A stretch of 64,000 bases of DNA from the IMG/VR virus record IMGVR_UViG_3300002835_000013; one strand, 5' to 3'. The notes under the pieces were generated by a model, which worked only from the letters and a program-made list of their open reading frames with translations, did not search any database and was not told the DNA's origin. This DNA is from a virus. The position numbers and the translations under genes were made by a program. Within the stretch, counting starts at the first letter, position 1. Every line of letters begins with the position of its first letter. This document shows, piece after piece, positions 8,497-62,793 of this stretch.

Positions 8497-8812
8497 AAAG
8501 GTGATTTTTCTGTTTCGAGGAAAACCACCAAACCCAATGAACTTACGCTGCTAGAGCGAAGTCAAATGGTACATTGTCGTTTGCTGCACCTGCAATTTGC
8601 CTTTGGTCTCCTTACGACCTTACTGTATCCCGTCGAACCTGTTCGCCCCCATCAAAGATACACTGTTGGACCCTCTGTCTTGTTCCAACTTTTCTCATAA
8701 AGAGTTGCGGGTTCCTATCTTTTCAGTCTAGGCAGTGTATCTATGATGGAGGCGGTGGGAATCGCACCCACGTCCAAGAAACCTATATTTCGTCTCTCAA
8801 CGACCTCGGCAA
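8497..8812 (-). ncRNA. ssrA: Circularly permuted (two-piece) tmRNA
   Basis: Acceptor piece ending GTGGG-TGCGATT-CCCAC-CGCCTCC-A (3' end at 8747) precedes the coding piece starting GGGGGCGAACAGGTTCGAC (8650); G3-U70 pair; tag ORF 8584-8543 ANDNVPFDFALAA*; terminator-like hairpin near 8500. Confidence 0.92.
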
Positions 8813-21446: not shown

Positions 21447-21560
21447 CTATAGTTTTGGTAGCCTTTTGCGATTGTATACAGTTTTCTTGTCTACAATCAC
21501 CTTTTGTCTACATTGAGGTTGTCGGAGTGCTTTCGCTACTGGATTCGGTTTTCGTTTCAT
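21447..21560 (-). CDS. 37-aa basic peptide resembling ArfA-type ribosome rescue factors (not in ORF track)
   Basis: MKRKPNPVAKALRQPQCRQKVIVDKKTVYNRKRLPKL; GAAGGGG RBS. Confidence 0.55.
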   Translation of the reverse strand: MKRKPNPVAKALRQPQCRQKVIVDKKTVYNRKRLPKL

Positions 21561-21585
21561 TTTACCCCTTCACATTCTATGTTTA

Positions 21586-21653
21586 CTAAATAGTAATGTC
21601 CGTCACGGTGTTGACGCACCCACGGACTCTAATACTGTATAGGAGTATCAGCA
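21586..21653 (+). promoter_or_regulatory. Late promoter (CTAAATA) plus structured leader of the HNH gene
   Basis: Same stem architecture as 34861-34927, with compensatory changes. Confidence 0.75.
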
Positions 21654-22253
21654 ATGTTATTTATATCCAACAAGTATACCACTTGGTATTTCTCCCTTAT
21701 AGAGAATCGCAAATCAACTATTCCAGAAGGATATGTTGAGAAGCATCATATTATCCCCAAATCTATCGGAGGAACCGATGACTCCGATAATCTTGTCGCA
21801 TTGACCGCAAGAGAACATTTTTTAGCACATTGGTTACTAACCAAAATGACTAAAGATAATGAACAAGTAAAAATGAAACATGCTTTGGGTGGAATGACTG
21901 GTAATAATCACAATGGAAGGACTCTATCATCTTATCAATATGCGATTTGTAGGCAATCATTTAGTGAAGCACGAAAAGGCGTTATTTCACCCCATATGCT
22001 AAGATCGGGTGAAGATCATCATATGTTCGGAAAGAAAAGACCAAGACAATCACTCCTTATGAGCGGTGAAAATAATCCAAACTATGGCAAGTTTGGTGAA
22101 AATCACCACTGTTATGGTAAGAAACATAAAGACGATAGGACAGAGAGAATGACTAAAACTTTACAGTCATTAGGCAAACTACCCTGTCCTAACTGTGGCG
22201 AAATGATTTCACCGTTGAACAGTCAACACAAAAGACGTTGTATCAACCTTTGA
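21654..22253 (+). CDS. Free-standing HNH homing endonuclease with NUMOD3-like repeats
   Basis: EKHHIIPKSIGG...NLVALTAREHFLAH; GENNPNYGK; C-terminal CPNC. Confidence 0.88.
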   Translation: MLFISNKYTTWYFSLIENRKSTIPEGYVEKHHIIPKSIGGTDDSDNLVALTAREHFLAHWLLTKMTKDNEQVKMKHALGGMTGNNHNGRTLSSYQYAICRQSFSEARKGVISPHMLRSGEDHHMFGKKRPRQSLLMSGENNPNYGKFGENHHCYGKKHKDDRTERMTKTLQSLGKLPCPNCGEMISPLNSQHKRRCINL

Positions 22254-23469
22254 TGTTGACCACCTGACGGAGACGGTGGACAATCTCAACAAGGTCATCC
22301 TGGGCAGCCATGACCGCACCGATATCCTTGTAAGCAGCCGGCGACTCGTCGATAACATCGGCATCCTTACGGCACTCGATACCCTCGGTCGCCTTGATAT
22401 GATCCTCTAGCGTGATAGCCTTACGTGCCGCATTGCGAGACATACGACGACCAGCGCCGTGAGAACATGAACAAAACGACTCATGATTACCAAGACCACG
22501 AACGATAAACGAACCCGTTCCCATCGAACCCGGTATGATACCGAGGTCGTTCTTACGAGCCCGAACAGCACCCTTGCGGGTCACATACACATTTTCTCCA
22601 AAGTGGTTCTCCTTGGAGATATAGTTGTGATGGCAGTTCACAGCCTTTTCGTCAGATACAACGAATGCCGGCAAACGCCCACGAAGAACCTTTAGCACAG
22701 CGTCCATCATAACCTGACGGTTGAGGGCAGCAAACTCCTGTGCCCACGATACAGCCTCCACATAATCATCGAATAGCGTCGTGTTTTCTACCAGATAGGA
22801 CAAGTCCTGATCCGGCAGATACGGCAAGATATGATAGCGTTCCATCTCACGCTTTGCAGCTTCGATGAAATACTGACCTATCTTGTTACCAACACCACGA
22901 GAACCAGAGTGTAGCATTACCCACACATAGTCGGCCTCGTCCAGACACAATTCGATAAAGTGATTACCCGTGCCAAGCGTTCCCATAAACTCGAAGGTCT
23001 TATGAGAAGCAATCTTCGGATGCTTTGCTAAGATAGCGTCATAACGAGACTTCAACACCGCCCAAGCATCTATGGCAGAACGGGACGCAAAGTTCGAGTT
23101 CCACGTTCCTTCGTCGTTCTTACCACCGTTGTCCGTGCGACCATGCGGCACTGCGGCCTCGATAGCAGAACGAAGCGGAGCAAGATTATCCGGTAAATCG
23201 TTCGCCGTCAGTGACAAGCGAACAGCCATCATACCGCAACCGATATCAACACCAACCGCAGCCGGAACCACAGCACCCTTCGTTGCTATAACAGAACCAA
23301 CCGTAGCACCCTTGCCAAGATGAACGTCCGGCATAACCGCTACATGCTTATACACGAACGGCAAGGACGCTATATTTTCCAACTGCGTGCGAGCGTCGGC
23401 TTCGACCTCAACACCTTCGCACCACATCTTGAGCGGCGCACCACGACCTTGGACGAACTGATAAGCCAT
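22243..23469 (-). CDS. rtcB: RNA-splicing/repair ligase RtcB
   Basis: MPDVH.G.G, VGVDIGCG, GTLG.GNHF, HSGSRG, HHN, SCSHGAGR, DE.P.AYK. Confidence 0.97.
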   Translation of the reverse strand: MAYQFVQGRGAPLKMWCEGVEVEADARTQLENIASLPFVYKHVAVMPDVHLGKGATVGSVIATKGAVVPAAVGVDIGCGMMAVRLSLTANDLPDNLAPLRSAIEAAVPHGRTDNGGKNDEGTWNSNFASRSAIDAWAVLKSRYDAILAKHPKIASHKTFEFMGTLGTGNHFIELCLDEADYVWVMLHSGSRGVGNKIGQYFIEAAKREMERYHILPYLPDQDLSYLVENTTLFDDYVEAVSWAQEFAALNRQVMMDAVLKVLRGRLPAFVVSDEKAVNCHHNYISKENHFGENVYVTRKGAVRARKNDLGIIPGSMGTGSFIVRGLGNHESFCSCSHGAGRRMSRNAARKAITLEDHIKATEGIECRKDADVIDESPAAYKDIGAVMAAQDDLVEIVHRLRQVVNIKG

Positions 23470-23791
23470 TTTATTTCTCCTAACGAGCCTCTACATAAAA
23501 ATCGGGCTTGATATACTTATTGAGATAATACTTTTTATATCGTTCAACAGCAACCCGTGAAATGCCACGGAATGTTATGGTCGTGCTATCAACAAAATAG
23601 ACCGACAGATTGTAGGTTTTCACATTAGCCATTTTATTTCTCCACACAGACATACTGGATCATAGCCTGATGATACTTATCAGGATATATACGAATAAGG
23701 GCTTCACCCGCCGCTTTACATTTGTCTAGCGAACTAAACTCCGCAGTAATTCCTGCCTTATAATATAAAAGAGCGATTAGAACGTAGGTCA

Positions 23792-24121
23792 TTATTCTTT
23801 CACTCCTTCAGGAAGCATCCAAATGTTTACACCGTGAACCATAAAGTCCTTGGCATCTTTAAGTCCATACCCAGTAGCATGACGCACAGCCTTAATGGCA
23901 TTGATGAACATGCGATATTCTTTTGAAGCATGAGTACGAATCTTTAGATCATACTTAATACCACGCAGAAGTCCCATAAGGACAGCGTTCTGTAAGTCCT
24001 CGCCCATTCCTTCTTTCAGTGAACGCCACATCTTCATGCCCTGCTCGTCTCCGTAATACTTTGTGATATCACGGAGAAGGTTGCGAGCACTAACAATAAG
24101 ACTTGTAGGAAGCTCAGCCAT
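23792..24121 (-). CDS. Protein with ribosomal bL12 C-terminal-domain-like motif
   Basis: INAIKAVRHATGYGLKDAKDF. Confidence 0.6.
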   Translation of the reverse strand: MAELPTSLIVSARNLLRDITKYYGDEQGMKMWRSLKEGMGEDLQNAVLMGLLRGIKYDLKIRTHASKEYRMFINAIKAVRHATGYGLKDAKDFMVHGVNIWMLPEGVKE

Positions 24122-24338
24122 AATATTGAACCTTTTCTTCTAGCCACTTTTTATAATCGTCGTGACTGAGATAATATTCAAGCACTACTTCAATAGCATC
24201 TCTCAAGTCATCCTCCTCTGGCATGGGATTTACAGCCATTGAACGATAATCATGTTTTAGATTTTCTACAACCAAATAGTCCACTTGGTCTTGATCTAAA
24301 TCAACTGTCATTATCCTCTTCATGTTCCTCATCCTCAT
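24114..24338 (-). CDS. Hypothetical protein
   Basis: ORF in early operon. Confidence 0.55.
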   Translation of the reverse strand: MRMRNMKRIMTVDLDQDQVDYLVVENLKHDYRSMAVNPMPEEDDLRDAIEVVLEYYLSHDDYKKWLEEKVQYYG

Positions 24339-24732
24339 ATAGTTCGTTTATAGTCTTCTCGTATTCAGTAGGTAGGCGTTCGCATGTTACGCTCTCACTG
24401 TAGTAGCCGTTTGAAGTTCCCAACCAACGAACAGTTACAGATCCCTTAATGGTACGAAAGTTATAGAAAGTCCAAGTGGCACTTTCATAATCCGCACCAC
24501 CGTCCTGCGAGTCCTCACGAGCCTCAAGAATTGGCACTCCTACAAGGTCGTTAAGATCACCTACAATGTCCTCAATGCGAACACTCTCGCAACAATCCTG
24601 CTCGTGATAGAACTTAAAGGAAGGAGTATCGCCTGCTCCAACGAACAAGAGAACATCGTTGTCCTTTTCACCCTCGACATGGTGAAAGGTTAATCCTTCC
24701 ATTTGGCTTAGATTATCAGCAAAATACTTCAT
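24301..24732 (-). CDS. Conserved hypothetical phage protein
   Basis: H.QDCCE.V..EDI.GDL...WTFY...T.KG.V..RW.G.SNGYYSE. Confidence 0.75.
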   Translation of the reverse strand: MKYFADNLSQMEGLTFHHVEGEKDNDVLLFVGAGDTPSFKFYHEQDCCESVRIEDIVGDLNDLVGVPILEAREDSQDGGADYESATWTFYNFRTIKGSVTVRWLGTSNGYYSESVTCERLPTEYEKTINELYEDEEHEEDNDS

Positions 24733-24792
24733 TCTACAACCTCAACTCTATCTTCTGCCTTCATATACCAATCGGGAGCAGTATCGCTAACA

Positions 24793-24981
24793 TTAGTCAT
24801 TATCTATCTCCTTCTCATGCCAATCGACGAGGATGCTTTCCTTGCAATGCATGTCTCTTTGCCATTGTATGGCATGGTTAAAATCCCAAAGCACACCATT
24901 GGTCGCCTCAAGAGAACTATCCGCGGTAACTACATAAACGTATCTGCGTTCTTCCACTAGTGTCACTTCATACGTCGTCAT
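24793..24981 (-). CDS. Hypothetical protein
   Basis: ORF translationally coupled to its upstream neighbour. Confidence 0.5.
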   Translation of the reverse strand: MTTYEVTLVEERRYVYVVTADSSLEATNGVLWDFNHAIQWQRDMHCKESILVDWHEKEIDND

Positions 24982-25127
24982 TCAGGCACCATCCAAATGT
25001 TTACACCGTGAACCATAAAGGTCTTAGTGTAGATTACGACACCGACATTACCATAAAGTTCGGCAACAGTCGGCAGAAGTTCGGTGACAGGAACATAAAC
25101 AGTTTTGTCCAGATTTGCTTCTGCCAT
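24978..25127 (-). CDS. 49-aa micro-protein ending NIWMVPE (not in ORF track)
   Basis: AGGTGAG RBS; shares 40 nt with the 3' end of the 23792-24121 gene. Confidence 0.55.
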   Translation of the reverse strand: MAEANLDKTVYVPVTELLPTVAELYGNVGVVIYTKTFMVHGVNIWMVPE

Positions 25128-25134
25128 TTCTCAC

Positions 25135-25353
25135 CTATTGATTTGCCGAGTCGTCAAAAGCATTGACGTTCGGAACTGTATATTCATTGCCAGTCGCAAA
25201 GATGACCGTGTCGCCTTCAACAACTTCCGCAACCGCACGAAGGTCCCAAAAGCGATGCCAGAAGTCCGGCTTGCCAAAGACCTTGAGGGCGTTATATACA
25301 CGCTCGTCCTTGAAACCGACAAAGTGGACAGCCATCGTTTCCTCATTTCTCAT
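25135..25353 (-). CDS. Hypothetical early protein
   Basis: HFVGF...A.KVFG.PDF.H..WD.RA; downstream of promoter cassette 3. Confidence 0.7.
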   Translation of the reverse strand: MRNEETMAVHFVGFKDERVYNALKVFGKPDFWHRFWDLRAVAEVVEGDTVIFATGNEYTVPNVNAFDDSANQ

Positions 25354-25364
25354 TCTATGGACAT

Positions 25365-25433
25365 ATTATAGCACAAGGAATGGAAGATGCAAGCGAAATC
25401 GTATGTAAACGGGTGCGACATTCTGTCGCACCC
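25365..25433 (-). promoter_or_regulatory. Early promoter cassette 3
   Basis: CTTGCA...TGCTATAAT; GGGTGCGACA-TTC-TGTCGCACCC palindrome 25411-25433. Confidence 0.85.
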
Positions 25434-25438
25434 TTAGT

Positions 25439-25564
25439 CTATTGATTTTGTAGCAAGATTGTATTAGGCACATACCAAATGCTGGATGCGGTATATGGGC
25501 AGGTACTATAATCATAACTCACCCGAATTCCAGCACCATAGAGACTGACATAAAACCGAGCCAT
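25439..25564 (-). CDS. 41-aa micro-protein (IWYVPNT)
   Basis: Coupled TAATG start; divergent member of the micro-ORF family. Confidence 0.5.
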   Translation of the reverse strand: MARFYVSLYGAGIRVSYDYSTCPYTASSIWYVPNTILLQNQ

Positions 25565-25668
25565 TAGTTTACTCCATCAAGAGCCATGATAAGAACGATA
25601 CCGAAGATTAGACCGACAGTAACAACACCAAGGGCCATAATCTGAACCATTTTACTTTCGTCTAACAT
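25564..25668 (-). CDS. 34-aa single-helix membrane peptide
   Basis: GGAGG RBS; hydrophobic core. Confidence 0.5.
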   Translation of the reverse strand: MLDESKMVQIMALGVVTVGLIFGIVLIMALDGVN

Positions 25669-25669
25669 T

Positions 25670-25786
25670 TTAGTCCTCCAGAGTGCCAGGAACAACCCAT
25701 ATTGAACATGAAGTAAACATATTACCACCAAAGCTAGCATATGCTACACAATGACCATATGAAGGAATATACCTATGAATAACCAT
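25670..25786 (-). CDS. 38-aa micro-protein (WVVPGTLED family)
   Basis: GGAGG RBS inside previous ORF; MVIHRY...IWVVPGTLED. Confidence 0.6.
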   Translation of the reverse strand: MVIHRYIPSYGHCVAYASFGGNMFTSCSIWVVPGTLED

Positions 25787-25787
25787 A

Positions 25788-25913
25788 TCATGCCTCCAAA
25801 GTTCCGGGAACAACCCAATAAGATTGATGATCACTATTAGCAGCATATGCCACAACATGACCAAACACACCGAGATTGGCGTATATCATCAGATGATTAA
25901 CATATACTATCAT
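25788..25913 (-). CDS. 41-aa micro-protein (WVVPGTLEA family)
   Basis: GGAGG RBS; MIVYVN...YWVVPGTLEA. Confidence 0.6.
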   Translation of the reverse strand: MIVYVNHLMIYANLGVFGHVVAYAANSDHQSYWVVPGTLEA

Positions 25914-25914
25914 A

Positions 25915-26043
25915 TCAATCCTCCAGAGTGCCGGGAACAATCCAATAAGAGATATCAGCATCGGGATAGATTTCATCCTGAAGCCAGGTGATAGCAGAAT
26001 AACCACGGTGACCATCGTGATAGATAGAATAGAAAACTGTCAT
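25915..26043 (-). CDS. 42-aa micro-protein (WIVPGTLED family)
   Basis: GGAGG RBS; MTVFYS...YWIVPGTLED. Confidence 0.6.
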   Translation of the reverse strand: MTVFYSIYHDGHRGYSAITWLQDEIYPDADISYWIVPGTLED

Positions 26044-26246
26044 TTCAGACCTCCGTCAGAATAGCGACAAGCGCAAGAGATATAGGCGCACCGAATAGAA
26101 CGAAAAAGAGAATAACGTCGGACACTATCGGTTCTCCGCATTAGAGATAAGATCGGGATATAACCACACACAAACACCGTGCCAAATCAACTGGTGCTCG
26201 GCCCAGTTATTGATCTGGGCAATGATGTGAACTGGGATATTATTCA

Positions 26247-26474
26247 TTATGCAGCCTCCTGACCGAGTTTATCCGTATCATACACAATCGACTCGCCGAG
26301 AAAGTCTTCGTTGGCACGGGCACCAACTACACGGCGAGAGATAATATAACGACCATACGCTTCACCCTCAAAATCGACCAGAGCCGATTGGGCATCTGCC
26401 AGCGAATAATAAACGCCGAGCATATAATCACCCTCATAATCGATGCAACCGAAGAGAACGAAAACTTCCATCAC
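26247..26474 (-). CDS. Hypothetical early protein
   Basis: YEG...LGVY motif; RBS. Confidence 0.6.
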   Translation of the reverse strand: MMEVFVLFGCIDYEGDYMLGVYYSLADAQSALVDFEGEAYGRYIISRRVVGARANEDFLGESIVYDTDKLGQEAA

Positions 26475-26641
26475 TTATCTCCTACTTTGATATTTTTACC
26501 AACCGTGAAACCACGCTTCGGACGTTTAGACGATTTCACCTTGGTGATTTTACCACCGTTTTCAGCCCAACGAAGAAGGGCGAGACGCAAAACCACATCT
26601 TTGCCGTCTTGGTTTTTGATATGAAAGCGAGTATTTGACAT
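26471..26641 (-). CDS. 56-aa basic protein with a GGKITK (SutA RNAP-binding-like) motif
   Basis: First ORF after promoter cassette 4; RWAENGGKITKV. Confidence 0.5.
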   Translation of the reverse strand: MSNTRFHIKNQDGKDVVLRLALLRWAENGGKITKVKSSKRPKRGFTVGKNIKVGDK

Positions 26642-26668
26642 GTTGGAACCTTTCTCGATTATGGGAAT

Positions 26669-26735
26669 ATATTAGCACATCGGAACGGAAGGGTCAACCA
26701 AAATCGTTTGTCAACGACTGCGACAGGTTGTCGCA
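26669..26735 (-). promoter_or_regulatory. Early promoter cassette 4
   Basis: TTGACC-17-TAATAT; palindrome 26719-26735. Confidence 0.85.
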
Positions 26736-26764
26736 CATTGATCGCAGTCGTTGACATTCTTCTA

Positions 26765-27001
26765 TCAAATATCAACATAGCGAATGGTAACATTGTCGAT
26801 ATTATATTCAACAATTTCGACGCTATATTGATCTAGATCAATCTTTTCTAAGACTTCTAGTAATACTTCTACGGATTCACGAAACTCTTTTGCTTCGGTC
26901 AGATTGTTGAATAACGGATCAAACTCTTGACGGATATTGTCGTTTATGTGATCATAAACAAGAATGGAATAATAGTTGGACATGATTTTTCCTTTCATCA
27001 T
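26765..27001 (-). CDS. Hypothetical acidic protein
   Basis: Single ORF between promoter cassettes 4 and 5. Confidence 0.6.
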   Translation of the reverse strand: MMKGKIMSNYYSILVYDHINDNIRQEFDPLFNNLTEAKEFRESVEVLLEVLEKIDLDQYSVEIVEYNIDNVTIRYVDI

Positions 27002-27007
27002 AGGAAC

Positions 27008-27074
27008 ATAATACCACGGTAAAAGGAAGGAGTCAATAGAAATCTAATTGTAAACAGTGCGACAGGATGTCGCA
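27008..27074 (-). promoter_or_regulatory. Early promoter cassette 5
   Basis: TTGACT-17-TATTAT; palindrome 27058-27074. Confidence 0.85.
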
Positions 27075-27076
27075 CC

Positions 27077-27319
27077 TCAGCTATTGCCAAGCTCAAGGCT
27101 CCGGCGCATCTTCCAGACCAGCTTTCTTTCTAGCTGATAAACCCGTGCCTGCGACAGGCCAAGCTCCTCGGCGATGGCATCGATGGTCTGGTTCTGATAG
27201 AAACGACGGACGGCGATGAATTGTAAACGTGGGCTAAGGCATTCGATAGCCCGTTTACAGACAACCTTACGGTCAAGGTCATGCATATTGATAAGTTGGA
27301 GAAAAGTTTCGTTTACCAT
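27077..27319 (-). CDS. Stand-alone sigma-70 region 4-like HTH protein
   Basis: LSPR...V.RRF...T...IAEELGLSQARVYQLE.K. Confidence 0.8.
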   Translation of the reverse strand: MVNETFLQLINMHDLDRKVVCKRAIECLSPRLQFIAVRRFYQNQTIDAIAEELGLSQARVYQLERKLVWKMRRSLELGNS

Positions 27320-27639
27320 TATCGGACGTCCGTATTGAGGGCAGGAGAGAGTTCACGGATAAGCTCACGCTCACGGATATGGGCAGCGGACTTGCCACGC
27401 ACCACTTCGTAATAGCAGACTTCAAATGCGTCTGGACCATACTTGCGGATCGCTTTACATAGGGCCCAGTCACGTCCCTCGGTCAGGGCACGGTTTACAT
27501 GCTTCTGCCAGCGACGGATAACAGACTTGGACACAGCCGACTTGTCTACATACGTCACGCCGATATATTCCAGTCCGTTTACAGACAAGGAATAGATGAC
27601 ATGCTTACGGTCGGTGCGGGCTTTGCGCTTCTTGATCAT
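27319..27639 (-). CDS. GIY-YIG nuclease-domain protein, probably leaderless
   Basis: VIY...YIG.T...R...H; E..LI....LN; ATG lies 6 nt after the -10 box. Confidence 0.75.
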   Translation of the reverse strand: MIKKRKARTDRKHVIYSLSVNGLEYIGVTYVDKSAVSKSVIRRWQKHVNRALTEGRDWALCKAIRKYGPDAFEVCYYEVVRGKSAAHIRERELIRELSPALNTDVR

Positions 27640-27645
27640 GGTCAC

Positions 27646-27711
27646 ATTATAGCACAATGGAACCGAGATGCAAGCGAAATCGTTTGTAAACGAGTGCGAC
27701 AGGTTGTCGCA
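27646..27711 (-). promoter_or_regulatory. Early promoter cassette 6
   Basis: CTTGCA...TGCTATAAT; palindrome 27695-27711. Confidence 0.85.
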
Positions 27712-27776
27712 CCTCTAAGTGACTGATTTCATTAATGATTTTATAAGTGATTGATTATAAAGCGATTTTATCTTAG

Positions 27777-28856
27777 TCAATTCTTCGATAGTATCAGATA
27801 CTCCGCATTAGGTTCATTGACCTCGTTTTTACAATTACCTGACTTGATTGCAAATGTCTGACTATTTGGTTTATGATCAAACTTAAATATATTTATCAGT
27901 TTTTGATGATCGCCAATAATTTCTATTAGGTTATCTATCTTTACTTTGGAACGATTACTATATGATATAAGTGTGTATTCTGTATCAAACTTTGTCAATA
28001 AAGATTTGAAAGAATCCTCGACGACAGAATTGTTTGTGCTTTCAAATTCCGAGATAGCACCTTTGATCTTATCACTCGATACATCATATCTTCTTTTAGA
28101 CGATCCGACTAAAACAGGACAGTCGTTCTTACATACTGTTGTCCATAGATGATAATAAGAAAAGTATCTTACTCGGGTCGTCTTTGTTTTTTCATTTGAT
28201 GTTCCATATGGAGGATCGAAGTAGCAAAGATCAAAACTATCCTTAACATCGAAGACATTTTTAGTATAAACTCTATGATCTAGATTATCTATTACATAGT
28301 TAGGAACTTTAAGATGTAAAGGTTTATACGTTTTTGAAGACCAATTCTTTAGATATGAGACCTGATGACCCATATCATTTGATACATTATCTAGAGCCAA
28401 CAACAGACTTGTTAATAACACGGATTTATCTATACAATCCATTGGATAAAGAATGTCTATCTCATTTCTAATTGCATCCAATTTTTCCGTAACATGCATT
28501 TGGAACGGTCTTTTAAAGCCATCTTCTTGAATCGAAGATCCATCTCTATCATAACCTCCGTAATTGATAGAGAACCATCCAACTGTTGGCGTTAAACTAT
28601 TTAAATGATCTACAATAGACTTATAATAACTATGAGGCTGTCTTGCTAACAAATAACATTCGGCAATATGTTTGGAATAGATTGCCATATCATTGCTAGT
28701 CGTAACGAATCCTTTGTGTTTGAAAAACTGTGAGACTCTGGTGCTACCAGAAAATCCATCGAGGACATTTTTTAAAGAAATGTCCTCAAGAATTAGATCA
28801 ATCTTTGGTAGTATCTTATTCTTACTGCCAGAGTATCTTATAGATTCATATCTCAT
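27777..28856 (-). CDS. DNA adenine methyltransferase (D12 / Dam-like class)
   Basis: RY.GSK, DGFSGS, YFDPPY, ISYS, EYL. Confidence 0.9.
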   Translation of the reverse strand: MRYESIRYSGSKNKILPKIDLILEDISLKNVLDGFSGSTRVSQFFKHKGFVTTSNDMAIYSKHIAECYLLARQPHSYYKSIVDHLNSLTPTVGWFSINYGGYDRDGSSIQEDGFKRPFQMHVTEKLDAIRNEIDILYPMDCIDKSVLLTSLLLALDNVSNDMGHQVSYLKNWSSKTYKPLHLKVPNYVIDNLDHRVYTKNVFDVKDSFDLCYFDPPYGTSNEKTKTTRVRYFSYYHLWTTVCKNDCPVLVGSSKRRYDVSSDKIKGAISEFESTNNSVVEDSFKSLLTKFDTEYTLISYSNRSKVKIDNLIEIIGDHQKLINIFKFDHKPNSQTFAIKSGNCKNEVNEPNAEYLILSKN

Positions 28857-29382
28857 TAACTATTTTTCCCACTCTTGAAACCCATGATAGAGGATAATTG
28901 ATTGTATGTTCTTTATTCTTCGAATTGGCACCACGGCGAGTTAGATTGTCTTCTGTGTAATCTAGAAATGCCGTGGTACTTACCTTATAAATGTATTTGA
29001 GTGTTAGTCCTTCAAACACACCACAATAAAATGCTTTATTTCTGGTGATGCGTTCAAGACTATCAGGCTTTCTTTCAGGATCGGAGAACATGCAATCGAT
29101 AGCAAAAGTTCCCGACTTTTTTCCATTGTTAGCAACTTTTTCCTGACAAGAAAGATACTCATAATAATTGATACCATCAGTAGCATCGGGGAGATGCTTG
29201 TTCTTAATGATCTTATGACCAAGACTATCTGCCATGATAACTTCTTTGATAAGACCTGGTTGTGTAATGTTATCAATTCCAGATTTTCTGAAAAGTTCTT
29301 GTGCTTTGTTTAGATGTTTAATTGCTTCACGAATGTCATCTGTAACATCGATCAGAATAGCGGATTCACTTATATTTCTCAT
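28846..29382 (-). CDS. PvuII-like restriction endonuclease
   Basis: End-to-end resemblance to PvuII as recalled (Q.L..K.GI..I.Q, DA.D...YE, G..L..IY, P...V...G); overlaps the MTase start. Confidence 0.6.
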   Translation of the reverse strand: MRNISESAILIDVTDDIREAIKHLNKAQELFRKSGIDNITQPGLIKEVIMADSLGHKIIKNKHLPDATDGINYYEYLSCQEKVANNGKKSGTFAIDCMFSDPERKPDSLERITRNKAFYCGVFEGLTLKYIYKVSTTAFLDYTEDNLTRRGANSKNKEHTINYPLSWVSRVGKIVNEI

Positions 29383-29403
29383 AACGACACCTTATAAAGT
29401 TAT

Positions 29404-29601
29404 TCAATGCTCGTAAAATTCGTCCACTTCGTCGTAATCATCGACATGTTCCATCCACGCCTTGGTCAGATTCCGAATAGGACGCTTCTTGGTCATGTCA
29501 GTCTGCGGACGCTCAATTCGCTTTCCGCCATACTTCTTGTCCTCTTCATATAGATCGACATAGAGAGGATCGATTTTGCGAGTTGGAGTCTTATTTTTCA
29601 T
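29404..29601 (-). CDS. Hypothetical protein
   Basis: ORF in operon. Confidence 0.55.
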   Translation of the reverse strand: MKNKTPTRKIDPLYVDLYEEDKKYGGKRIERPQTDMTKKRPIRNLTKAWMEHVDDYDEVDEFYEH

Positions 29602-29616
29602 AGAATGATATCCATG

Positions 29617-30048
29617 TTATGTTGGTAGCAGACCTTCGAATGCTTCACTAACGATTGCTGGCGTTAGATATGGCACCTTTAGATCCTTTCTAATCATGTT
29701 AGCATACACCTCGGCCTCTTTTGGCTCCAGTGATTCAAGAATCTGAATCAATAGTTCCTCTTTGCGCTTTTCTGTCAAAGTAGGAGGACACTGAGGATGA
29801 TCCTTCACAAAAAGATATACACGGCGCAAGGCGTCAGTGATATGATTATAAGACATACCTGGCGGCACATCTTCGCTCTTGTATTCTGGGATTTTCTTGA
29901 TACAAAATTCCACGTTAGGTGAGAATGCTCCCTGTAGAACACTCATTAGAGCAAAGTTTTTGTTTTTGCGAAGAACCTCAATTCTCTCCGCCTTTGTTTT
30001 AGCGTTTTTGAAATCATCAAAAACTTCATACACATTCTTAATAGCCAT
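29617..30048 (-). CDS. Conserved hypothetical protein typically downstream of rnh in T4-like phages
   Basis: R.E....Q.LE.L...EA, V.EAF..L motifs. Confidence 0.7.
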   Translation of the reverse strand: MAIKNVYEVFDDFKNAKTKAERIEVLRKNKNFALMSVLQGAFSPNVEFCIKKIPEYKSEDVPPGMSYNHITDALRRVYLFVKDHPQCPPTLTEKRKEELLIQILESLEPKEAEVYANMIRKDLKVPYLTPAIVSEAFEGLLPT

Positions 30049-30905
30049 TAGAAGTCTCCTATTGACTCAATCATTGCCTTGAGTCCTTTGTCAATAAAAT
30101 AGTTTAGCATCTTCTCTTTTGTAGCAGGCTTTGATTCCTCAAAAGCCACTACAATCTTCTTCTGAATTTCATCAGGTATATAGTCAAAATCAACCAGCAT
30201 TTGATTACGCTTAAACCCACGAAGCATATCAGCGTTACAAAAATCCGTGGCATCTTTCTGAACCCATTCAGAGAGTTTCTTACTGTTTATCGGCTTCTGA
30301 CGTTCACCAGCGGCAAAGCAGTTGTCAGGCGATAGAAAGTTTGGAATACCATCACCACGATCACCCTTTAGAATATGCTCACGAATGAACGTCTTAGGAT
30401 CATCAATCTTGATGAACCGCTTTAGAATAGGAGAATACTGTGAAACGTTTGGATACTTCTGTAGTTGTGCGAAGTCTTTGTCCGATGACAAAATGAGAAC
30501 ACTGCCATGCGGAGCCAACCGAGCGGTTAGAACGGCAATAACATCGTCGGCTTCGGCACCTTCGACATTTAGAGTCTTATAGGGAAAGTTGTCACGCAGT
30601 TCATCTCGGAGACGATTTAGAACATCAAAGATCATGTTCCAATCCAGACCAGATGCCTCTCGGTCGTGCTTACGATGCGCCTTGTAGAAAGGAAACACAT
30701 CACGGCGCCAGTAATGCTTGGAGTCGCAGCAAAGAATAACGTTATTGTATTTCGACCGAAACTGTTTTACATTGGATCGGATTGTATTGATACACATATG
30801 GCGAATAAGGTCTTCGCTCATTTCATGTTGTTTGGCCACAAACTTTAGATGCTGCATCAAGTTTGAGATAAGAACCTGGTTAAGGTCGATTAGCATGTAA
30901 GACAT
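30048..30905 (-). CDS. rnh: T4-type RNase H (5'-3' exonuclease)
   Basis: WRR..FP.YK..R, EADD, SSDKDF.QL, GD.GDGIPN. Confidence 0.95.
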   Translation of the reverse strand: MSYMLIDLNQVLISNLMQHLKFVAKQHEMSEDLIRHMCINTIRSNVKQFRSKYNNVILCCDSKHYWRRDVFPFYKAHRKHDREASGLDWNMIFDVLNRLRDELRDNFPYKTLNVEGAEADDVIAVLTARLAPHGSVLILSSDKDFAQLQKYPNVSQYSPILKRFIKIDDPKTFIREHILKGDRGDGIPNFLSPDNCFAAGERQKPINSKKLSEWVQKDATDFCNADMLRGFKRNQMLVDFDYIPDEIQKKIVVAFEESKPATKEKMLNYFIDKGLKAMIESIGDF

Positions 30906-30937
30906 AATATTTCCTTATTGAGTGAATAGATACTATA

Positions 30938-31336
30938 TCACTCTTCCTCGTCAGTGTCAAGATTATCTTTTGCTTGTGTCAATTCCAACATAATCTTTTC
31001 GATCTTTTCCTTAATCTCTTCCTTGGTCATTCCTTCACCACCTTCGATTAGCTTGACATTGTTATCCACAAAGTCATGGAGATGATGATCGATTCCAAAT
31101 GACCGATATACACAAGCCTTGAGTGCGTCCGCTACCAGAACAAAGTCTTTGGAGAACTGTTTGTTTTCCACTTCGACCATACAGTTGTCAAGTTCCGTGA
31201 TTAGCATTCCCGTTAGGTCATCAACAATAGCATCGGCCAACTTTTGGTCAGCCTTTGCTTGTCGTGCTATAAGATGCTCTTGTGGAACTTCTCGAACCAC
31301 CTTATGTTTTGGAAACTCGATTACTTTGTCGGTCAT
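30938..31336 (-). CDS. Hypothetical protein
   Basis: ORF; KVIEFP start. Confidence 0.6.
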   Translation of the reverse strand: MTDKVIEFPKHKVVREVPQEHLIARQAKADQKLADAIVDDLTGMLITELDNCMVEVENKQFSKDFVLVADALKACVYRSFGIDHHLHDFVDNNVKLIEGGEGMTKEEIKEKIEKIMLELTQAKDNLDTDEEE

Positions 31337-32073
31337 TTGTTATCCTTGAAAACTGATTTGTCATTGTAACAAGTATACGTCACATAGCTCCATATTCTGT
31401 TAGCATAGTAGAAAGCAGCCTTTTCTGTAATATAAAGCATGTTATCACGAAACGGAGAACTCTCGATATTTAGAAACCTCTCGCCCATTCTCATACACGC
31501 TGCCACAATATTGTCCGTGATATCTTCTCGGTCAATATATCGAAACGGACATCTATTAGATGCTAGATGCTTTTCTAAGGAGGCATCGGTATCTGTAACA
31601 ACAAACACTCCGTTGGAATCAAGCACTCGCCGAACTTCAATCAAAAACAGTTGAGGGTTATCATAACAATGCATCGACTCAACATTTGTTACGATATCGA
31701 ACGTAGAGTTATTGAACGATATGTTATGAGCATCCATAACATAATAAGAATCGTCCTTGAATACCCTATTAGCAAACGAGATATTGTCCTCGCTGATATC
31801 GATCCCTGTGGCGCCAGCGAAACCATAGTTTCCTGTTTTGAACATATTGACCGCACCGCCACGACCACAACCAACGTCCAGAATATTCTTGTTTTCGGTC
31901 ACAAGATTTTTCAGTAGATGTTGGTATAGGGATTTCTGATAGCCATTGAAGTAGTCGGATGATAGATCGACCTCAGGATCTTCTGTATAATATCCATGAT
32001 TGAAAAAGGTCAGGATATCAGGACAGATTTCATTGAAGTGTTTATAATGTTGTATTGTATCTAACGGGTTCAT
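31333..32073 (-). CDS. Class I SAM-dependent methyltransferase
   Basis: LDVGCGRGG, GID, FD.V.NVES.H.Y. Confidence 0.85.
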   Translation of the reverse strand: MNPLDTIQHYKHFNEICPDILTFFNHGYYTEDPEVDLSSDYFNGYQKSLYQHLLKNLVTENKNILDVGCGRGGAVNMFKTGNYGFAGATGIDISEDNISFANRVFKDDSYYVMDAHNISFNNSTFDIVTNVESMHCYDNPQLFLIEVRRVLDSNGVFVVTDTDASLEKHLASNRCPFRYIDREDITDNIVAACMRMGERFLNIESSPFRDNMLYITEKAAFYYANRIWSYVTYTCYNDKSVFKDNK

Positions 32074-33191
32074 TTTACTACTCTCAATAGAAGTGTATCA
32101 GTGTTGATACGACCAGTTGCTTTTTGTTCTGTTGTGGTGATGTTATCCATAACCTTGCGAAGATAGATTTTGCCACCTTCGAGAAGAGGTTTGATTACCG
32201 CTTCTGGCTTACGGAGTTTCTTTGTGACCGAAGTTGTCTCGTCAAATCCTGTAAGCGTAGACCCTCTGACCGAAAGGCCAGAATGACCCACGGCATTATA
32301 CACAGAAAGATTACGAGTCTTAGCATTATAAACCCAAAGTTGCGAAGCACCAATAATCTCCTTAGGATCGATACTCTTATATTCATCATTGTTAGGTAGA
32401 TAGTTCATCTTGGAAACCAGCACACTCGCTGGCTTTACCTTCTTCTTGCGTGGCTTACGAATAGTCTGACCAGCAGAATCCAGTTCTACCATATGATCGA
32501 TTAGTCGCTTGATGAAAAGCGCCATGATTTTAAGAACTGGCTTACGCCAACCCTTATACGACTCAGCCAACTCTTTGTCTTTGCCTTCGAGGGCTTCGGT
32601 GATTTCATTGTATTGAGGACGGAAGTGTTCTGCAATCCTCTTCGCAATTTGCGGTTTAATTCCCTTCTCAAGGGACCACTTCTTAACATCGAACTGAATA
32701 ACTCCTTCTTGGAAGAACACGTCCAACTGTTCTTCCAACTCGCCGATTAGATCGGACGCTTTATTGTTGATACGGTCCTGGATTGATACGATCTTGACAA
32801 CTGCCGCTGGTTCTTCGTCGTTATCGATTGTAACAGCAGAAGCAAGTTGTTTGATTCTGGAATAGCAACGATCCCAAACACCATCAGGCAGATTACTGCC
32901 ATTATGGAGCAAACGGCAGTTCCAACCGATGTTATGAAGATCAATGGCATTTACTTTAGAGAGTTTTGTGATTGTGTCTTTGTTGTATTTGATATACTTG
33001 AGGTAGGAGATTGTGAAGTTTTTGGCGTCCTCACTATTATAGAAATAGTTGAACCATGTGTATGCCCTGGCCATATCGCCCTGCGTGGCCTTTTCGGTGA
33101 CTGTGGGTTCCGGACCCAGATACTTTTCATCAGCAAATTTAGGTCGTCTTACGGTAGCCGACTTTCTCACCTTTTTCTCCTTGTCTTTCAA
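32070..33191 (-). CDS. Conserved hypothetical T4-like phage protein
   Basis: IIGA..LWVYN.K.R.L, KKLRKPE, GRIN...LL. Confidence 0.75.
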   Translation of the reverse strand: MKDKEKKVRKSATVRRPKFADEKYLGPEPTVTEKATQGDMARAYTWFNYFYNSEDAKNFTISYLKYIKYNKDTITKLSKVNAIDLHNIGWNCRLLHNGSNLPDGVWDRCYSRIKQLASAVTIDNDEEPAAVVKIVSIQDRINNKASDLIGELEEQLDVFFQEGVIQFDVKKWSLEKGIKPQIAKRIAEHFRPQYNEITEALEGKDKELAESYKGWRKPVLKIMALFIKRLIDHMVELDSAGQTIRKPRKKKVKPASVLVSKMNYLPNNDEYKSIDPKEIIGASQLWVYNAKTRNLSVYNAVGHSGLSVRGSTLTGFDETTSVTKKLRKPEAVIKPLLEGGKIYLRKVMDNITTTEQKATGRINTDTLLLRVVK

Positions 33192-33636
33192 GATGTTGTT
33201 TCCAAAGTTCGTAAAGTTCTTTTTCTAGTTGTGCTGCTTCTATTTCCCACGGCAGCTTTTTATAATCGACCATATGCTCATTGAACATAGTGCCTTGCCA
33301 CTTTTGATAACTGCCATACTCCATATCTATAAGTTCTTTTCTAGCATACTGTTTGACGTGGACAAGTTCATGTGCCAGTGTCCGAAATAAAAATACAGGT
33401 CCAAGGTCTGCGTCAATTTCTATTTCAAACTTACGATGGTTCCTTGTTTCGTCATCTGTCCATGTAGCGAAACCAAAACACTTAGTATTCTTATATAGAT
33501 TTTTCTTGAGTTTGATTTTGACATGGACATTTCTACTTAGGCGTTTCAAGAGGTAATCGCAAAAAAAGTTTGCTGCGGATCGAATTGATCTAGTATGAAC
33601 CTTTTTTGCGCTACCTATGATCTTGATTGTTGCCAT
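33139..33636 (-). CDS. Zincin-like metallopeptidase
   Basis: AHELVHVKQ...PWEIEA. Confidence 0.75.
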   Translation of the reverse strand: MATIKIIGSAKKVHTRSIRSAANFFCDYLLKRLSRNVHVKIKLKKNLYKNTKCFGFATWTDDETRNHRKFEIEIDADLGPVFLFRTLAHELVHVKQYARKELIDMEYGSYQKWQGTMFNEHMVDYKKLPWEIEAAQLEKELYELWKQHLERQGEKGEKVGYRKTT

Positions 33637-33637
33637 G

Positions 33638-33931
33638 TTATCCGAAGATGTATCCGTAATCTTTGAAGTCGTTGATCACACAGATACCATCCTCAGTTTC
33701 GCCTACATCATACTCCAATGCCTCGGCAAAGTCAATAGCCTGGTTAAGTGTATGAAATACTTCGCTTTCACCAAACGTTTCCTTGATAGCGGAAAGATTT
33801 CCTTCATATAATGCCTTATCAGCATTCCACTCACCATAGATGTTTCCAATGGAATGAGAATAAGAGACACGATATTCAGGACCCTTTTCTGTTTCCGTTA
33901 GAAGGACATAGATTCCGTTATCAACCGACAT
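33638..33931 (-). CDS. Hypothetical protein
   Basis: MS.DNGIY.L start; coupled ORF. Confidence 0.6.
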   Translation of the reverse strand: MSVDNGIYVLLTETEKGPEYRVSYSHSIGNIYGEWNADKALYEGNLSAIKETFGESEVFHTLNQAIDFAEALEYDVGETEDGICVINDFKDYGYIFG

Positions 33932-34188
33932 TATTCTTCTCCCTCGTCACCATCATTCATAAAAGTTGATTTGAACAAGCGAACAAACCAAGAGAACATG
34001 AAAGGTGCCCAAAGCGGAGCAGTCACCTCTACCCATGTCCAGTTCTGGAGATGGTCGGTCAACTTTAGACCAATGAACAGTAGTGCTAGACCGTCCATAA
34101 AGTTGATGCCATCGGACGAGGCTGACACGTTGATGATTTTGCTATTCTCGCTCAAGTTCTTCACCTTTGTTGGTAGATCCATAGGCAT
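33931..34188 (-). CDS. Small membrane protein
   Basis: L.FI.LKLT...W.W..V.APLW. Confidence 0.65.
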   Translation of the reverse strand: MPMDLPTKVKNLSENSKIINVSASSDGINFMDGLALLFIGLKLTDHLQNWTWVEVTAPLWAPFMFSWFVRLFKSTFMNDGDEGEE

Positions 34189-34288
34189 TACTTCTTCTTT
34201 CTTCCTTTGAGACGACGGGCTTTGCGTTTTGTTGAACCAATCTTACGACGACCCTTGCGAGGTCTATTCTTATGTGGATGCGCCATAC

Positions 34289-34564
34289 TTACTCCCTCAA
34301 TAGTGTTTTCACGGTTTTCACGGAATCATAACGAAAGGATCGCCATCCATCTGCGTCAATATCCCATACTACCTGAACATCATCATTCAACTGCCGAGCA
34401 GGCTTTGCTACCTGTCCATCATATTCTGATAGCATCTGCGGTAGCGGTACATATAGATCAGAAAGAGTGGCACGCATGGTGCGTTCCGTTCCATCTTTCT
34501 TCTCAAAGACAACGGTAACAACACCGTTCTTCAAGTCTTCTTTTAGTCCATACTTGTCAATCAT
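34289..34564 (-). CDS. WYL-like / SH3-fold phage protein
   Basis: V.F.K.DGT.R.M.ATL...WD....WRSF. Confidence 0.75.
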   Translation of the reverse strand: MIDKYGLKEDLKNGVVTVVFEKKDGTERTMRATLSDLYVPLPQMLSEYDGQVAKPARQLNDDVQVVWDIDADGWRSFRYDSVKTVKTLLRE

Positions 34565-34794
34565 AGTTTTCCTTCCTCATGTAGATTGGAAAGTTCATTA
34601 TAGCCGCCAATGTAACGACTGTCAATAGTGATTACGGGAAAGGTTTTGGCAGTAGGATATAATGCCTTGATAGTCTCTCTGGAAAAGTCTCTTTCTAGTT
34701 TATATTCAATAAAGAACTTTCCTTGACTTCTTAGAAGTTCCCTGGCTTTGTCACAGAAGGAACATTCATCTTTGGAATAAATTACGATAGCCAT
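34561..34794 (-). CDS. nrdC: Glutaredoxin
   Basis: CSFC active site, TFP.I, IGGY. Confidence 0.9.
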   Translation of the reverse strand: MAIVIYSKDECSFCDKARELLRSQGKFFIEYKLERDFSRETIKALYPTAKTFPVITIDSRYIGGYNELSNLHEEGKL

Positions 34795-34860
34795 GTTTAC
34801 CTCATTGTCTTATATAATAGCAGAATCATTTTGGAATGTCAAGTGAAAAATCTAAAAACG

Positions 34861-34927
34861 CTAAATAGATGTAGGTCGCAGGATTGCCGTCCTCACCTAC
34901 TCTAACGCTAAACAGGAGCGCCAGCAT
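34861..34927 (+). promoter_or_regulatory. Late promoter (CTAAATA) plus structured leader of the GIY-YIG gene
   Basis: Same stem architecture as 21586-21653, with compensatory changes. Confidence 0.75.
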
Positions 34928-35422
34928 ATGTCTTACTATATATACGCCTATATTCGTCAAAACGGAACTCCCTATTATATCGGTAAAGGAAAAGGTAAAC
35001 GAGCCTGGAGTATTCATCCTGGTGTTTCTGTTCCTAAAGATCCTTCTCGCATAGTCATAATGGAATCAAACCTAACTAATGTGGGCGCCTGTGCTTTGGA
35101 GCGCCGATATATTAGATGGTTCGGTCGCAAAGACCTCGGCACTGGTATTCTCATAAACAGAACCGAAGGAGGTGATGGTAATACTAGTCCTCGTTCCGAC
35201 GAATGGAAAAAAGAACATAGTGTAAAAATGTCAGGATCTAATAATCCTATGTTTGGTAAAACAAGAAAACCCATTGATCGTTCATATATGAAAACCGAAG
35301 AATATCGTAAGAAGATAAGTGAAGCAAAGAAAGGTAAACCTAATCTAAAACTCCGTGGTCGTGTTTTCACCGAAGAATGGAAAAGAAAGATTAGCGAGTC
35401 CAAGAAGAAACCCTTACTTTAG
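34928..35422 (+). CDS. Free-standing GIY-YIG-type homing endonuclease with NUMOD3 repeats
   Basis: YIYAY...PYYIGKG...R, E...I, N.T.GGDG; [15 protein letters not shown]. Confidence 0.8.
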
Positions 35423-35815
35423 TGCTTTCACATGAGTTCGCCTAACTCTCAAAAAAATCCAATCGTTATAATAGTCCTCGGAAATCAAAGCGTTTCGGTC
35501 AAACTGTTCCTTCGCTTCCATATACGAAGCCTCGCCTTTACTCTTACATAGATAGAGGATTTCTCTTGTGAACTTTTCTTTGCCGAATAGATCAACATGC
35601 GAAAGGAGTTCTTTGTTTGAACCATAGTAATCCAGCCAATCCGAATCAACCTGTTTCTTCACTCGCTTACCTTTTCTCTTGGTGCTGCGAGTGAAACGAA
35701 ACAGTTTCTTGCCTACATATTTCTTATCAGTGACCGTGTTTGTTATCAGATAAACAAACGCCACATATCCATCTGGTATTTCAGTAAGTGGTTCTTTGTT
35801 GTATGTCCATGCCAT
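35414..35815 (-). CDS. Conserved GIY-YIG family protein
   Basis: FVYLITN....KYVGKK, SDW..YYGS, F.REIL, YYN. Confidence 0.8.
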
Positions 35816-62340: not shown

Positions 62341-62414
62341 TGGATCAGGAACCTGGATTCGAACCAAGATTAACGGAGTCAGAGTCCGCTGTTCTACCGT
62401 TGAACTATTCCTGA
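62341..62414 (-). tRNA. tRNA-Gln(CUG)
   Basis: Cloverleaf, anticodon CTG, encoded CCA. Confidence 0.92.
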
Positions 62415-62415
62415 A

Positions 62416-62490
62416 TGGATCGGGGACTAGGACTCGAACCTAGAAAGTCGGAACCAAAATCCGACGTTATGCCAATTTAACTATCCCCGA
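62416..62490 (-). tRNA. tRNA-Gln(UUG)
   Basis: Cloverleaf, anticodon TTG, CCA. Confidence 0.92.
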
Positions 62491-62497
62491 ATAAAGA

Positions 62498-62589
62498 TGG
62501 TGCGTGAGGTAGGATTCGAACCTACAATGTTACCACAAAGGGAACGGATTTACAGTCCGCTGCAACACCACCGCCGTTGCCGCTCACAC
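62498..62589 (-). tRNA. tRNA-Tyr(GUA)
   Basis: Anticodon GTA, long variable arm, enlarged D arm, CCA. Confidence 0.85.
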
Positions 62590-62786: not shown

Positions 62787-62793
62787 GTAAACT

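Follow-up and report, generated by a model that had tools for sequence, protein, structure and literature searches.

The 64,000-nt stretch of viral DNA analyzed here (IMG/VR virus record IMGVR_UViG_3300002835_000013, hereafter the window) belongs to a distant T4-like, cyanophage-related myovirus without a close GenBank relative. It carries two copies of a structured module, each placed directly in front of a homing endonuclease gene (HEG). The module is a real, widespread and apparently undescribed phage RNA element, with more than 150 further copies in uncultured T4-like phage contigs. Judging from the pairing pattern across this family, the fold is very probably selected on the strand antisense to the nuclease gene. 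There is about an even chance that the module encodes an independent antisense RNA that represses the nuclease.

Two copies in the window and a wider family

An earlier note on the window had described a covarying RNA leader in front of two unrelated nuclease genes, and the letters that it quoted at 21598–21653 and 34871–34927 were confirmed exactly. The features of the two copies are listed below; coordinates are those of the plus strand of the window unless marked (−), and R1 is a covariance model built from the two window copies.

21586–21592, plus strand: late-promoter-like box CTAAATA of the HNH copy, 5 bases before the first base (G) of stem P1
21598–21653, plus strand: HNH copy of the element, forming the 5′ untranslated region (UTR) of the HNH mRNA with P1, P2, P3 and the Shine-Dalgarno (SD) sequence GGAG; 80 bits with model R1
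21598–21603 with 21622–21627, plus strand: P1 of the HNH copy, then a CAC bulge
21607–21610 with 21617–21620, plus strand: P2 of the HNH copy
21628–21632, plus strand: linker TCTAA of the HNH copy
21633–21636 with 21644–21647, plus strand: P3 of the HNH copy, then TCAGCA and the ATG at 21654
34861–34867, plus strand: late-promoter-like box CTAAATA of the second copy, 3 nt before P1
34871–34927, plus strand: second copy of the element, forming the 5′ UTR of a Seg-like gene; 81 bits
34871–34876 with 34895–34900, plus strand: P1 of the second copy
34880–34883 with 34890–34893, plus strand: P2 of the second copy
34901–34905, plus strand: TCTAA of the second copy
34906–34909 with 34917–34920, plus strand: P3 of the second copy, with the ATG at 34928

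The two 57-nt segments aligned with one gap and shared the architecture that had been described. All 14 pairs were standard in both copies; seven of them were changed on both sides, and none was broken. Only 2 of 500 column shuffles matched the pairing level of the two-copy alignment, and slid partners gave 29–50% paired. Both copies had CTAAATA on the 5′ side and an ATG-initiated plus-strand open reading frame (ORF) on the 3′ side, and both were set within a region of minus-strand genes. The covariance models R1 and R2 found just these two copies in the window. The Rfam scan that the earlier note had proposed was run, and the element matched no Rfam family on either strand: at the gathering score of Rfam 15, the whole window gave no match at either site, and with E-values up to 10 the sole match of the 251-nt stretches, on both strands, was a chance miRNA.

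Model R1 retrieved 28 further copies beside homologous nuclease genes taken from IMG/VR, and model R2 was built from those. A pattern derived from the conserved part, in which TCTAA, CT, GGAG and CAGC were fixed, gave at least 119 viral contigs, and model R2 found 122 full-length copies in the first 100 of these, with two or three copies in several contigs. The resemblance of the two window copies was thus far beyond chance, since the models retrieved 28 and then 122 more copies. The protein-derived set, which was not selected by pattern, showed the same conserved blocks with few exceptions. Among 111 distinct sequences, double changes occurred at all 14 pairs, and 95.0% of the cells were paired vs. 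70.9% in shuffles. The covariance-model search suggested earlier therefore yielded many homologues, and the two outcomes named as speaking against the element, an Rfam match and a lack of further homologues, did not occur. The conservation of the loops stood in part: the linker TCTAA and YCAGC were conserved across the family, whereas the apical loop TTGMCG was not, being 6–9 nt long in the family with merely a Y-U-G bias. A loop-to-tail pseudoknot between the apical YUG and the CAG of YCAGC was dropped, because the apical loop is not conserved.

A pattern scan of 185,579 prokaryote genomes gave 72 loci, of which only seven strong copies were real. These lay on six freshwater contigs of metagenome-assembled genomes (MAGs) from Luteolibacter, Haliscomenobacter, Bacteroidetes and Nitrosomonadales bins; they are probably mis-binned phage and give no host inference. 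A literature search on motifs in HEG leaders or antisense motifs found only CfrI, the T-even hairpins and the promoter/stem-loop cassettes termed PeSLs, none of which describes the module.

The module was almost always located at the start of a homing endonuclease gene. The two genes in the window were as follows.

21654–22253, plus strand: HNH + NUMOD3 homing endonuclease gene, antisense to its neighbors (Pfam HNH 2e-5, NUMOD3 1e-4; PHROG_655 homing endonuclease 6e-44)
34928–35422, plus strand: Seg-like HEG with a GIY-YIG-like N-terminus and NUMOD3 (NUMOD3 1.5e-9; PHROG_314 4e-7)

The HNH identity that had been assigned to the first gene was upheld. The GIY-YIG identity proposed for the second is suggested weakly, by a PDB sequence search (E 0.5) and the PHROG_314 match, and its homologues are annotated as Seg-like or as intron endonuclease. 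Portability across unrelated nucleases, first proposed from these two genes, extended to the whole family. Apart from Seg-like genes, the Pfam names behind the module comprised HNH + NUMOD3, HNH_3, GIY-YIG, NUMOD3-only, TnsA-like endonuclease and PDDEXK_15, and the ORFs that begin at its ATG formed at least 17 unrelated N-terminal clusters. In L148 and L208, the ATG of the module opens merely a short upstream ORF (uORF, 9–39 aa), and the nuclease gene lies further downstream.

Strand of the fold and the facing promoter boxes

Wobble pairs and mismatches were distributed very unevenly between the strands. When P1, P2 and P3 were read on the gene strand, 3 G.U vs. 70 A.C cells were counted (P1 0 vs. 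12, P2 3 vs. 4, P3 0 vs. 54). The bulge purine (column 8) and the 3′ pyrimidine (column 39) were G/C in 67 copies, A/U in 17, A/C in 27 and G/U in none, which brought the gene-strand total to 3 G.U vs. 97 A.C. On the opposite strand, A.C becomes G.U. This asymmetry indicated that pairing is under selection on the antisense strand of the nuclease gene.

The minus-strand fold was predicted with RNAalifold from a plain MAFFT alignment of 42 diverse minus-strand copies, with no structure supplied. The consensus had 19 pairs in two hairpins, with 98.1% of the cells paired and double changes in 16 of the 19 pairs, and none of the shuffled or slid versions of the alignment came near this pairing. Hairpin A′ is a continuous 8-bp helix (CUGR-YRCU with AGYR-YUAG) with an invariant G.U in mid-helix and a 7-nt loop starting with CC. 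Its CUGR and YUAG, which pair together, are the complements of YCAGC and UCUAA, and its R-Y position (column 5 with column 25) was A-U in 24 copies, G.U in 13, G-C in 3 and U-A in 1. Hairpin B′ has 11 bp with two invariant bulged G, and a linker A stands between A′ and B′. The minus strand folded more stably in 132 of 134 distinct copies, by a mean of −4.6 kcal/mol, a difference that G+U richness alone favors. Selection of the fold on the minus strand is, on these comparisons, highly probable.

The earlier note had taken the conserved, seemingly unpaired bases of the leader as a sign of a tertiary fold, a ligand site, a ribozyme or an autorepression site. This part of the note was not supported, and almost all of these bases could be accounted for: UCUAA and YCAGC, like the bulge purine and the 3′ pyrimidine, pair with each other on the opposite strand, GGAG is the SD sequence, and others belong to the promoter boxes. 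Membership among riboswitch-like or ribozyme-like leaders was rejected, given that the conserved bases pair on the opposite strand and the apical loop is variable.

The minus-strand features in the window were as follows.

21586–21652 (−): predicted cis-antisense RNA of the HNH copy, with a putative start near G 21652 and a putative end
21651–21644 with 21636–21629 (−): hairpin A′ of the HNH copy, 8 bp, loop CCUAUAC (anti-SD)
21627–21598 (−): hairpin B′ of the HNH copy, 11 bp with two bulged G, then a U-rich tail complementary to the plus promoter
21658–21665 (−): perfect TATAAATA of the HNH copy in codons 2–4, then ACATT, then G (21652)
34859–34925 (−): minus-strand fold of the second copy, with hairpin A′ CUGGCGCU/AGCGUUAG (two G.U) and B′ at 34900–34871
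34937–34944 (−): degenerate box TATATATA of the Seg-like copy, 11 nt from the complement of CAGC, which is the wrong distance

The minimum-free-energy structure of the minus strand in the HNH copy consisted of exactly the two hairpins (−20.8 kcal/mol, z −2.8, 68% of the ensemble). In the second copy, B′ is followed by a U-rich stretch, the complement of 34846–34870, which is part of the insert.

In T4 late promoters, a TATA box of 8 bp precedes the start by "about one helical turn" (PMC2988020), and the late promoters of cyanomyoviruses read NATAAATA (PMC2984593). In the family, the plus box TAAATA was located 5 nt (66 copies) or 3–4 nt (51 copies) before P1; position −1 was T in 95%, and the first base of P1 was always a purine. 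The CTAAATA boxes reported before both elements were confirmed in the sequence; a second, reverse late box in codons 2–4 had been overlooked. The downstream ORFs begin with M-x-I-Y (ATG NNT ATT TAT), and codons 2–4 carry TATTTAT, the reverse complement of the late-promoter box. The block T-ATT-TAT at +6 to +12 was conserved at 79–91% per position, in 17 N-terminal protein clusters that are unrelated to one another. In codon 2, the third base was T in ~90% of cases, over eight or more amino acids, vs. 34% in the background, and the Ile codon of the block showed an ATT:ATA ratio of 76:15 vs. 38:43. The block was also retained in the uORF cases L148 and L208. The conservation into the coding region thus has a nucleic-acid reason, since it exceeds codon bias and is retained where the ATG opens only a uORF.

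On the minus strand, the block reads ATAAATA-NNCAT-G, with the same box-N5-purine geometry as the plus promoter and T at −1, and the G after the box is the complement of the last C of YCAGC. The box-N5-G spacing equals that of the other TATAAATA sites in the window, and the two boxes form an inverted repeat around the core. Within codons 2–4, a reverse late box at box-N5-purine spacing was detected in the sequence of 98 of the 134 distinct copies: both boxes were present in 86 copies, the plus box only in 30, the minus box only in 12 and neither in 6. The HNH copy has CTAAATA only as its plus box, whereas its minus box is a perfect TATAAATA; the canonical reverse promoter was absent from the Seg-like copy. 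The frequency of the reverse box was 0.78 with an upstream neighbor on the plus strand and 0.71–0.75 with one on the minus strand. It was thus independent of the orientation of the neighbor, which indicated that the box is not merely the neighbor's promoter. The U-richness of the tail did not differ with neighbor orientation either (118 copies). In variants with the plus box displaced 12–14 nt upstream, A5-6 T abuts P1, so that hairpin B′ is followed by A U5-6 on the minus strand; such variants keep the U-run or improve it.

Proposed antisense control and its alternatives

We propose that the module is a portable ~90-bp head cassette of free-standing HEGs, with a T4-type late promoter at each end and the two facing each other. 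The left one (CTAAATA/TATAAATA) would start the HEG mRNA at the first base of P1 or at most 2 nt from it. From the right promoter, in codons 2–4, a minus-strand RNA would begin at the G that faces the last C of YCAGC, one base before A′. This RNA of ~70 nt would comprise hairpin A′, which displays the anti-SD sequence CUCC at the stem-loop junction, the linker A, hairpin B′ and a U-rich tail, with its 3′ end at some point in the U-rich sequence complementary to the plus promoter. It would be fully complementary to the HEG 5′ UTR, including GGAG, and would base-pair with that mRNA; since both RNAs could fold as mirror hairpins, contacts between their loops are possible. Such pairing would block ribosome binding and/or make a substrate for RNase III, so that the potentially toxic nuclease would be kept low, and interference between the convergent promoters may add to the repression. 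In the Seg-like copy, any antisense RNA would need to arise at a variant box or by transcription running through from the convergent segE-like gene. We infer the firing of both boxes, the 3′ end of the RNA and the repression itself from the sequence.

Several results weigh against this proposal. The fold was kept in 36 of the 134 copies, including the Seg-like copy of the window, that had no canonical reverse box (TATTTA at canonical spacing). Exact TATAAATA was seen seven times in the window, where ~7 were expected by chance; therefore, only the conservation across the family supports the reverse box. The rule that places the transcription starts was taken over from T4 (PMC2988020). A consensus terminator scan of both sites did not call hairpin B′ plus tail a terminator, and the U-run usually begins 2 nt after the B′ stem, so the 3′ end is uncertain. 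A minus-strand ORF started at most 60 nt from the module in 34 of 118 copies, as counted from simple longest-ORF calls whose starts may be overextended; read-through transcripts may matter, because many minus-strand ORFs start close by. The proposal does not account for the linker A, for the G at the 5′ end or for the two bulged G that are invariant. Megablast and blastn searches of 50,697 GenBank phages with the region and with two module copies found no isolate phage with the module.

The main alternative, which we consider unlikely, is that the minus-strand promoter and hairpins face outward as a leader or insulator for the flanking phage genes, with repression of the HEG being incidental. 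The module would then restore or stabilize transcription of the downstream minus-strand gene after HEG insertion, by way of a stabilizing hairpin at the 5′ end, or would terminate antisense read-through ahead of the next transcription unit. T4 HEGs do carry embedded promoters for displaced neighbors (PMC2988022), and a diverging minus-strand neighbor was present in 78 of 118 copies, in 34 of them within 60 nt. In the window, 37 nt separate hairpin B′ from the small ORF 21447–21560(−), which directly adjoins rtcB in relatives with an empty site, and the Seg-like insert places a U-rich stretch just before an early promoter. However, the reverse box and the tail composition were the same in the 40 of 118 copies with a plus-strand upstream neighbor, where there is no gene to feed. 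Antisense control also fits better with the display on A′ of the exact complement of the HEG's own SD sequence and with the predicted start of the RNA 1 nt before it. Moreover, the roles of terminator and of read-through leader contradict each other at different sites.

The reading of the earlier note, a structured 5′ leader on the sense strand, is improbable to a greater degree. It would be a riboregulator with a 5′-terminal stabilizing hairpin and a weak SD-sequestering hairpin, perhaps bound by a protein or a ligand. The plus strand is also paired in 95% of cells, the predicted late start lies at or near the first base of P1, a purine, P3 covers the last two bases of GGAG, and T-even HEGs use hairpins at the ribosome-binding site (RBS; PMC2988022). 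Nevertheless, it is this strand that has 97 A.C mismatches vs. 3 G.U, and the lower half of the P3 helix always has A.C there. The box lies 3 nt from P1 in about one-third of the copies, where a T4-like start would remove the covarying P1 pairs 1–2, and the variants with displaced promoters lose the 5′-terminal position of the hairpin. The variable apical loop and the lack of an Rfam riboswitch or ribozyme match on either strand also speak against it. A DNA-level element, either a PeSL-like cassette for the recombination and shuffling of HEGs or a minus-strand single-stranded DNA hairpin with incidental RNA folding, is very unlikely: the cassette is common to at least 17 ORF clusters, lies at insert edges, occurs two or three times per contig and has its boxes as an inverted repeat around the core, and PeSL cassettes mediate modular shuffling in T4-type phages (PMC2839356, PMC4122927), but recombination needs identity, yet the stems vary freely while paired (7 of 14 pairs differ within the window), an abundance of G.U, with an invariant one inside the 8-bp helix, is characteristic of RNA rather than DNA, and PeSLs carry early sigma-70 promoters, not late boxes.

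An extension of the antisense model, to which we give little credence, is that these RNAs form a dedicated "governor" class for HEGs. The two invariant bulged G, the linker A, the constant CUGR/YUAG helix and the exposed anti-SD loop would then be read by a protein of the phage or the host, and the RNAs from every HEG copy of a genome would act partly in trans. If true, this would constitute a genome-wide multicopy brake or timing switch for homing, beyond the mRNA of each copy itself.

Among known systems, the RNA-OUT/RNA-IN pair of IS10/Tn10 offered the closest analogy to the proposed control. RNA-OUT of IS10, a 69-nt RNA whose promoter lies within the 5′ end of the transposase gene, blocks ribosome binding (PMC5006887). 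In both cases, a selfish element would limit its own DNA-cutting enzyme, a gene-internal promoter faces the promoter of the gene, and a stem-loop RNA of ~70 nt (both predicted for the module) is complementary to the translation initiation region. At the level of sequence, the HNH copy has a predicted convergent promoter on the opposite strand in the 5′ end of the gene, and the stem-loops are antisense-selected. In contrast to IS10, the boxes of the module are of the phage late type and not sigma-70, and its predicted two-hairpin RNA would span the entire 5′ UTR and leave the AUG uncovered. The module is also common to unrelated nuclease families, with copy-specific stems.

The control of T-even HEGs (I-TevI, I-TevII, I-TevIII, segB and Aeh1 mobE) resembles the module in late expression and in RNA structure at the RBS (PMC2988022). 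However, the T-even late promoter lies inside a long hairpin, and the late transcripts lose the inhibitory arm. The module does not place its promoter within a hairpin: all stems lie downstream of the promoter, no SD bases but the last two are paired in P3, and the selected fold is on the other strand. In a read-through RNA, the promoter box could form a weak A-U helix with TATTTAT. The nearest cultured-phage homologues of the Seg-like gene, in S-SRM01 (L001:470–585) and B23 (L002:505–600), use the classical T-even design: a terminator-like hairpin and a TATAAATA box lie within a long inverted repeat, and late transcripts would lack the 5′ arm. Model R2 found no module copy in S-PM2, S-SRM01 or B23.

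In cyanophage S-PM2, experiments have detected the antisense RNA CfrI, whose locus is opposite the HEG F-CphI (PMC2984593, PMC5931967). It likewise lies opposite a free-standing HEG in a T4-like cyanophage, but it is ~225 nt long and bridges psbA and the HEG. Homology with CfrI was ruled out, as the best hit of R2 over the whole S-PM2 record (E 0.75) was at an unrelated place. Promoters embedded in T4 HEG ORFs are also known (PMC2988022). PeSLs resemble the module in that a promoter and a stem-loop make up a short, repeated cassette, which flanks accessory genes and travels with them (PMC2839356, PMC4122927). However, the stem-loop of a PeSL is a terminator, its promoter is an early sigma-70 promoter and its sequence is conserved, whereas the stems of the module covary, its two boxes are of the late type and it is linked to nucleases. 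Membership in the PeSLs was rejected; the boxes are late-type, and the sigma-70-like promoter at 34842–34814(−) lies outside the insert.

Insertion sites and meaning for homing endonucleases

Both cassettes in the window could be delimited by comparison with relatives that have an empty site.

21580–22262: HNH cassette insert (approximate), with ~6 nt, promoter, module, HEG and the recoded last ~18 nt of rtcB
34846–35425: Seg-like cassette insert (approximate) at the glutaredoxin/segE-like site; the glutaredoxin relatives lack the second copy

In relatives with 86–91% amino acid identity in RtcB, the module was absent and rtcB abutted a small downstream ORF directly. The HNH-site insert is ~680 bp and starts only ~6 nt outside CTAAATA. 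The Seg-like insert adds 15 A-rich bases (34846–34860; U-rich on the minus strand) beyond CTAAATA, and homology to empty-site relatives resumes exactly at the −35 TTGACA of the promoter at 34842–34814(−). At both sites the module lies at the edge of the insert and thus forms the outermost part of the mobile unit.

The HNH cassette recodes the end of rtcB (22245–22262), which reads …QVVNIKG* vs. …QVLNVKG* in empty-site relatives. A non-coding remnant of the original rtcB 3′ end, at ~21564–21580, adjoins the small downstream ORF. Together, the recoding and the remnant look like the footprint of homing with recoding of the target site. The small ORF, 21447–21560(−), encodes 37 aa and gave a sub-threshold Pfam match to DUF7230 (6e-5, 23.5 bits vs. 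a cutoff of 27) and no match to ArfA. In HEG-less relatives its SD sequence overlaps the rtcB stop, which suggests that the two genes are translationally coupled there.

At the second site, 34842–34814(−) is a near-consensus sigma-70-type early promoter of the glutaredoxin gene (TTGACA-17-TATTAT with TG). The segE-like gene 35414–35815(−), of 133 aa and with a SegE_GIY-YIG domain, is convergent with the Seg-like HEG and overlaps it by 9 nt. It is present in the empty-site relative L370 with a differing C-terminus (…SHIKKSLDIPK* vs. …THVKALK*); the difference from empty-site relatives indicated that the Seg-like HEG insert recoded the end of this gene too. In the more distant relatives L384 (1846–1900) and L385 (555–609), a different module copy plus HEG lies directly downstream of the glutaredoxin gene and is co-oriented with it. 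The glutaredoxin neighborhood was thus invaded independently at another position. In L167, the module (143–197) is located directly before the T4-type terminase large subunit gene (227–1900), behind a 9-aa uORF and without a reverse box; it is either the relic of a lost HEG or a module used by an ordinary late gene. Elsewhere, the window carries a phage-borne permuted two-piece tmRNA at 8543–8805(−) (Rfam tmRNA_permuted, 90.9 bits), a cluster of at least nine tRNA genes at 62344–64000(−), and RtcB at 22243–23469(−).

The main selfish elements of large phages are homing endonucleases, and to our knowledge their restraint is known just from a few T-even cases, with RBS hairpins and autorepression. 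Here, one portable cassette serves at least four nuclease superfamilies in >150 environmental copies, with a fold that is very likely selected on the antisense strand. The module also calls for caution, as a "structured leader" read on one strand can mirror an RNA of the other strand. If the proposal is true, antisense RNA control would join the repertoire of HEGs, as in IS10 and type I toxin-antitoxin systems. The module would then be a new phage RNA family for Rfam, and it would provide a sequence tag for locating free-standing HEGs and their insert boundaries in metagenomes.

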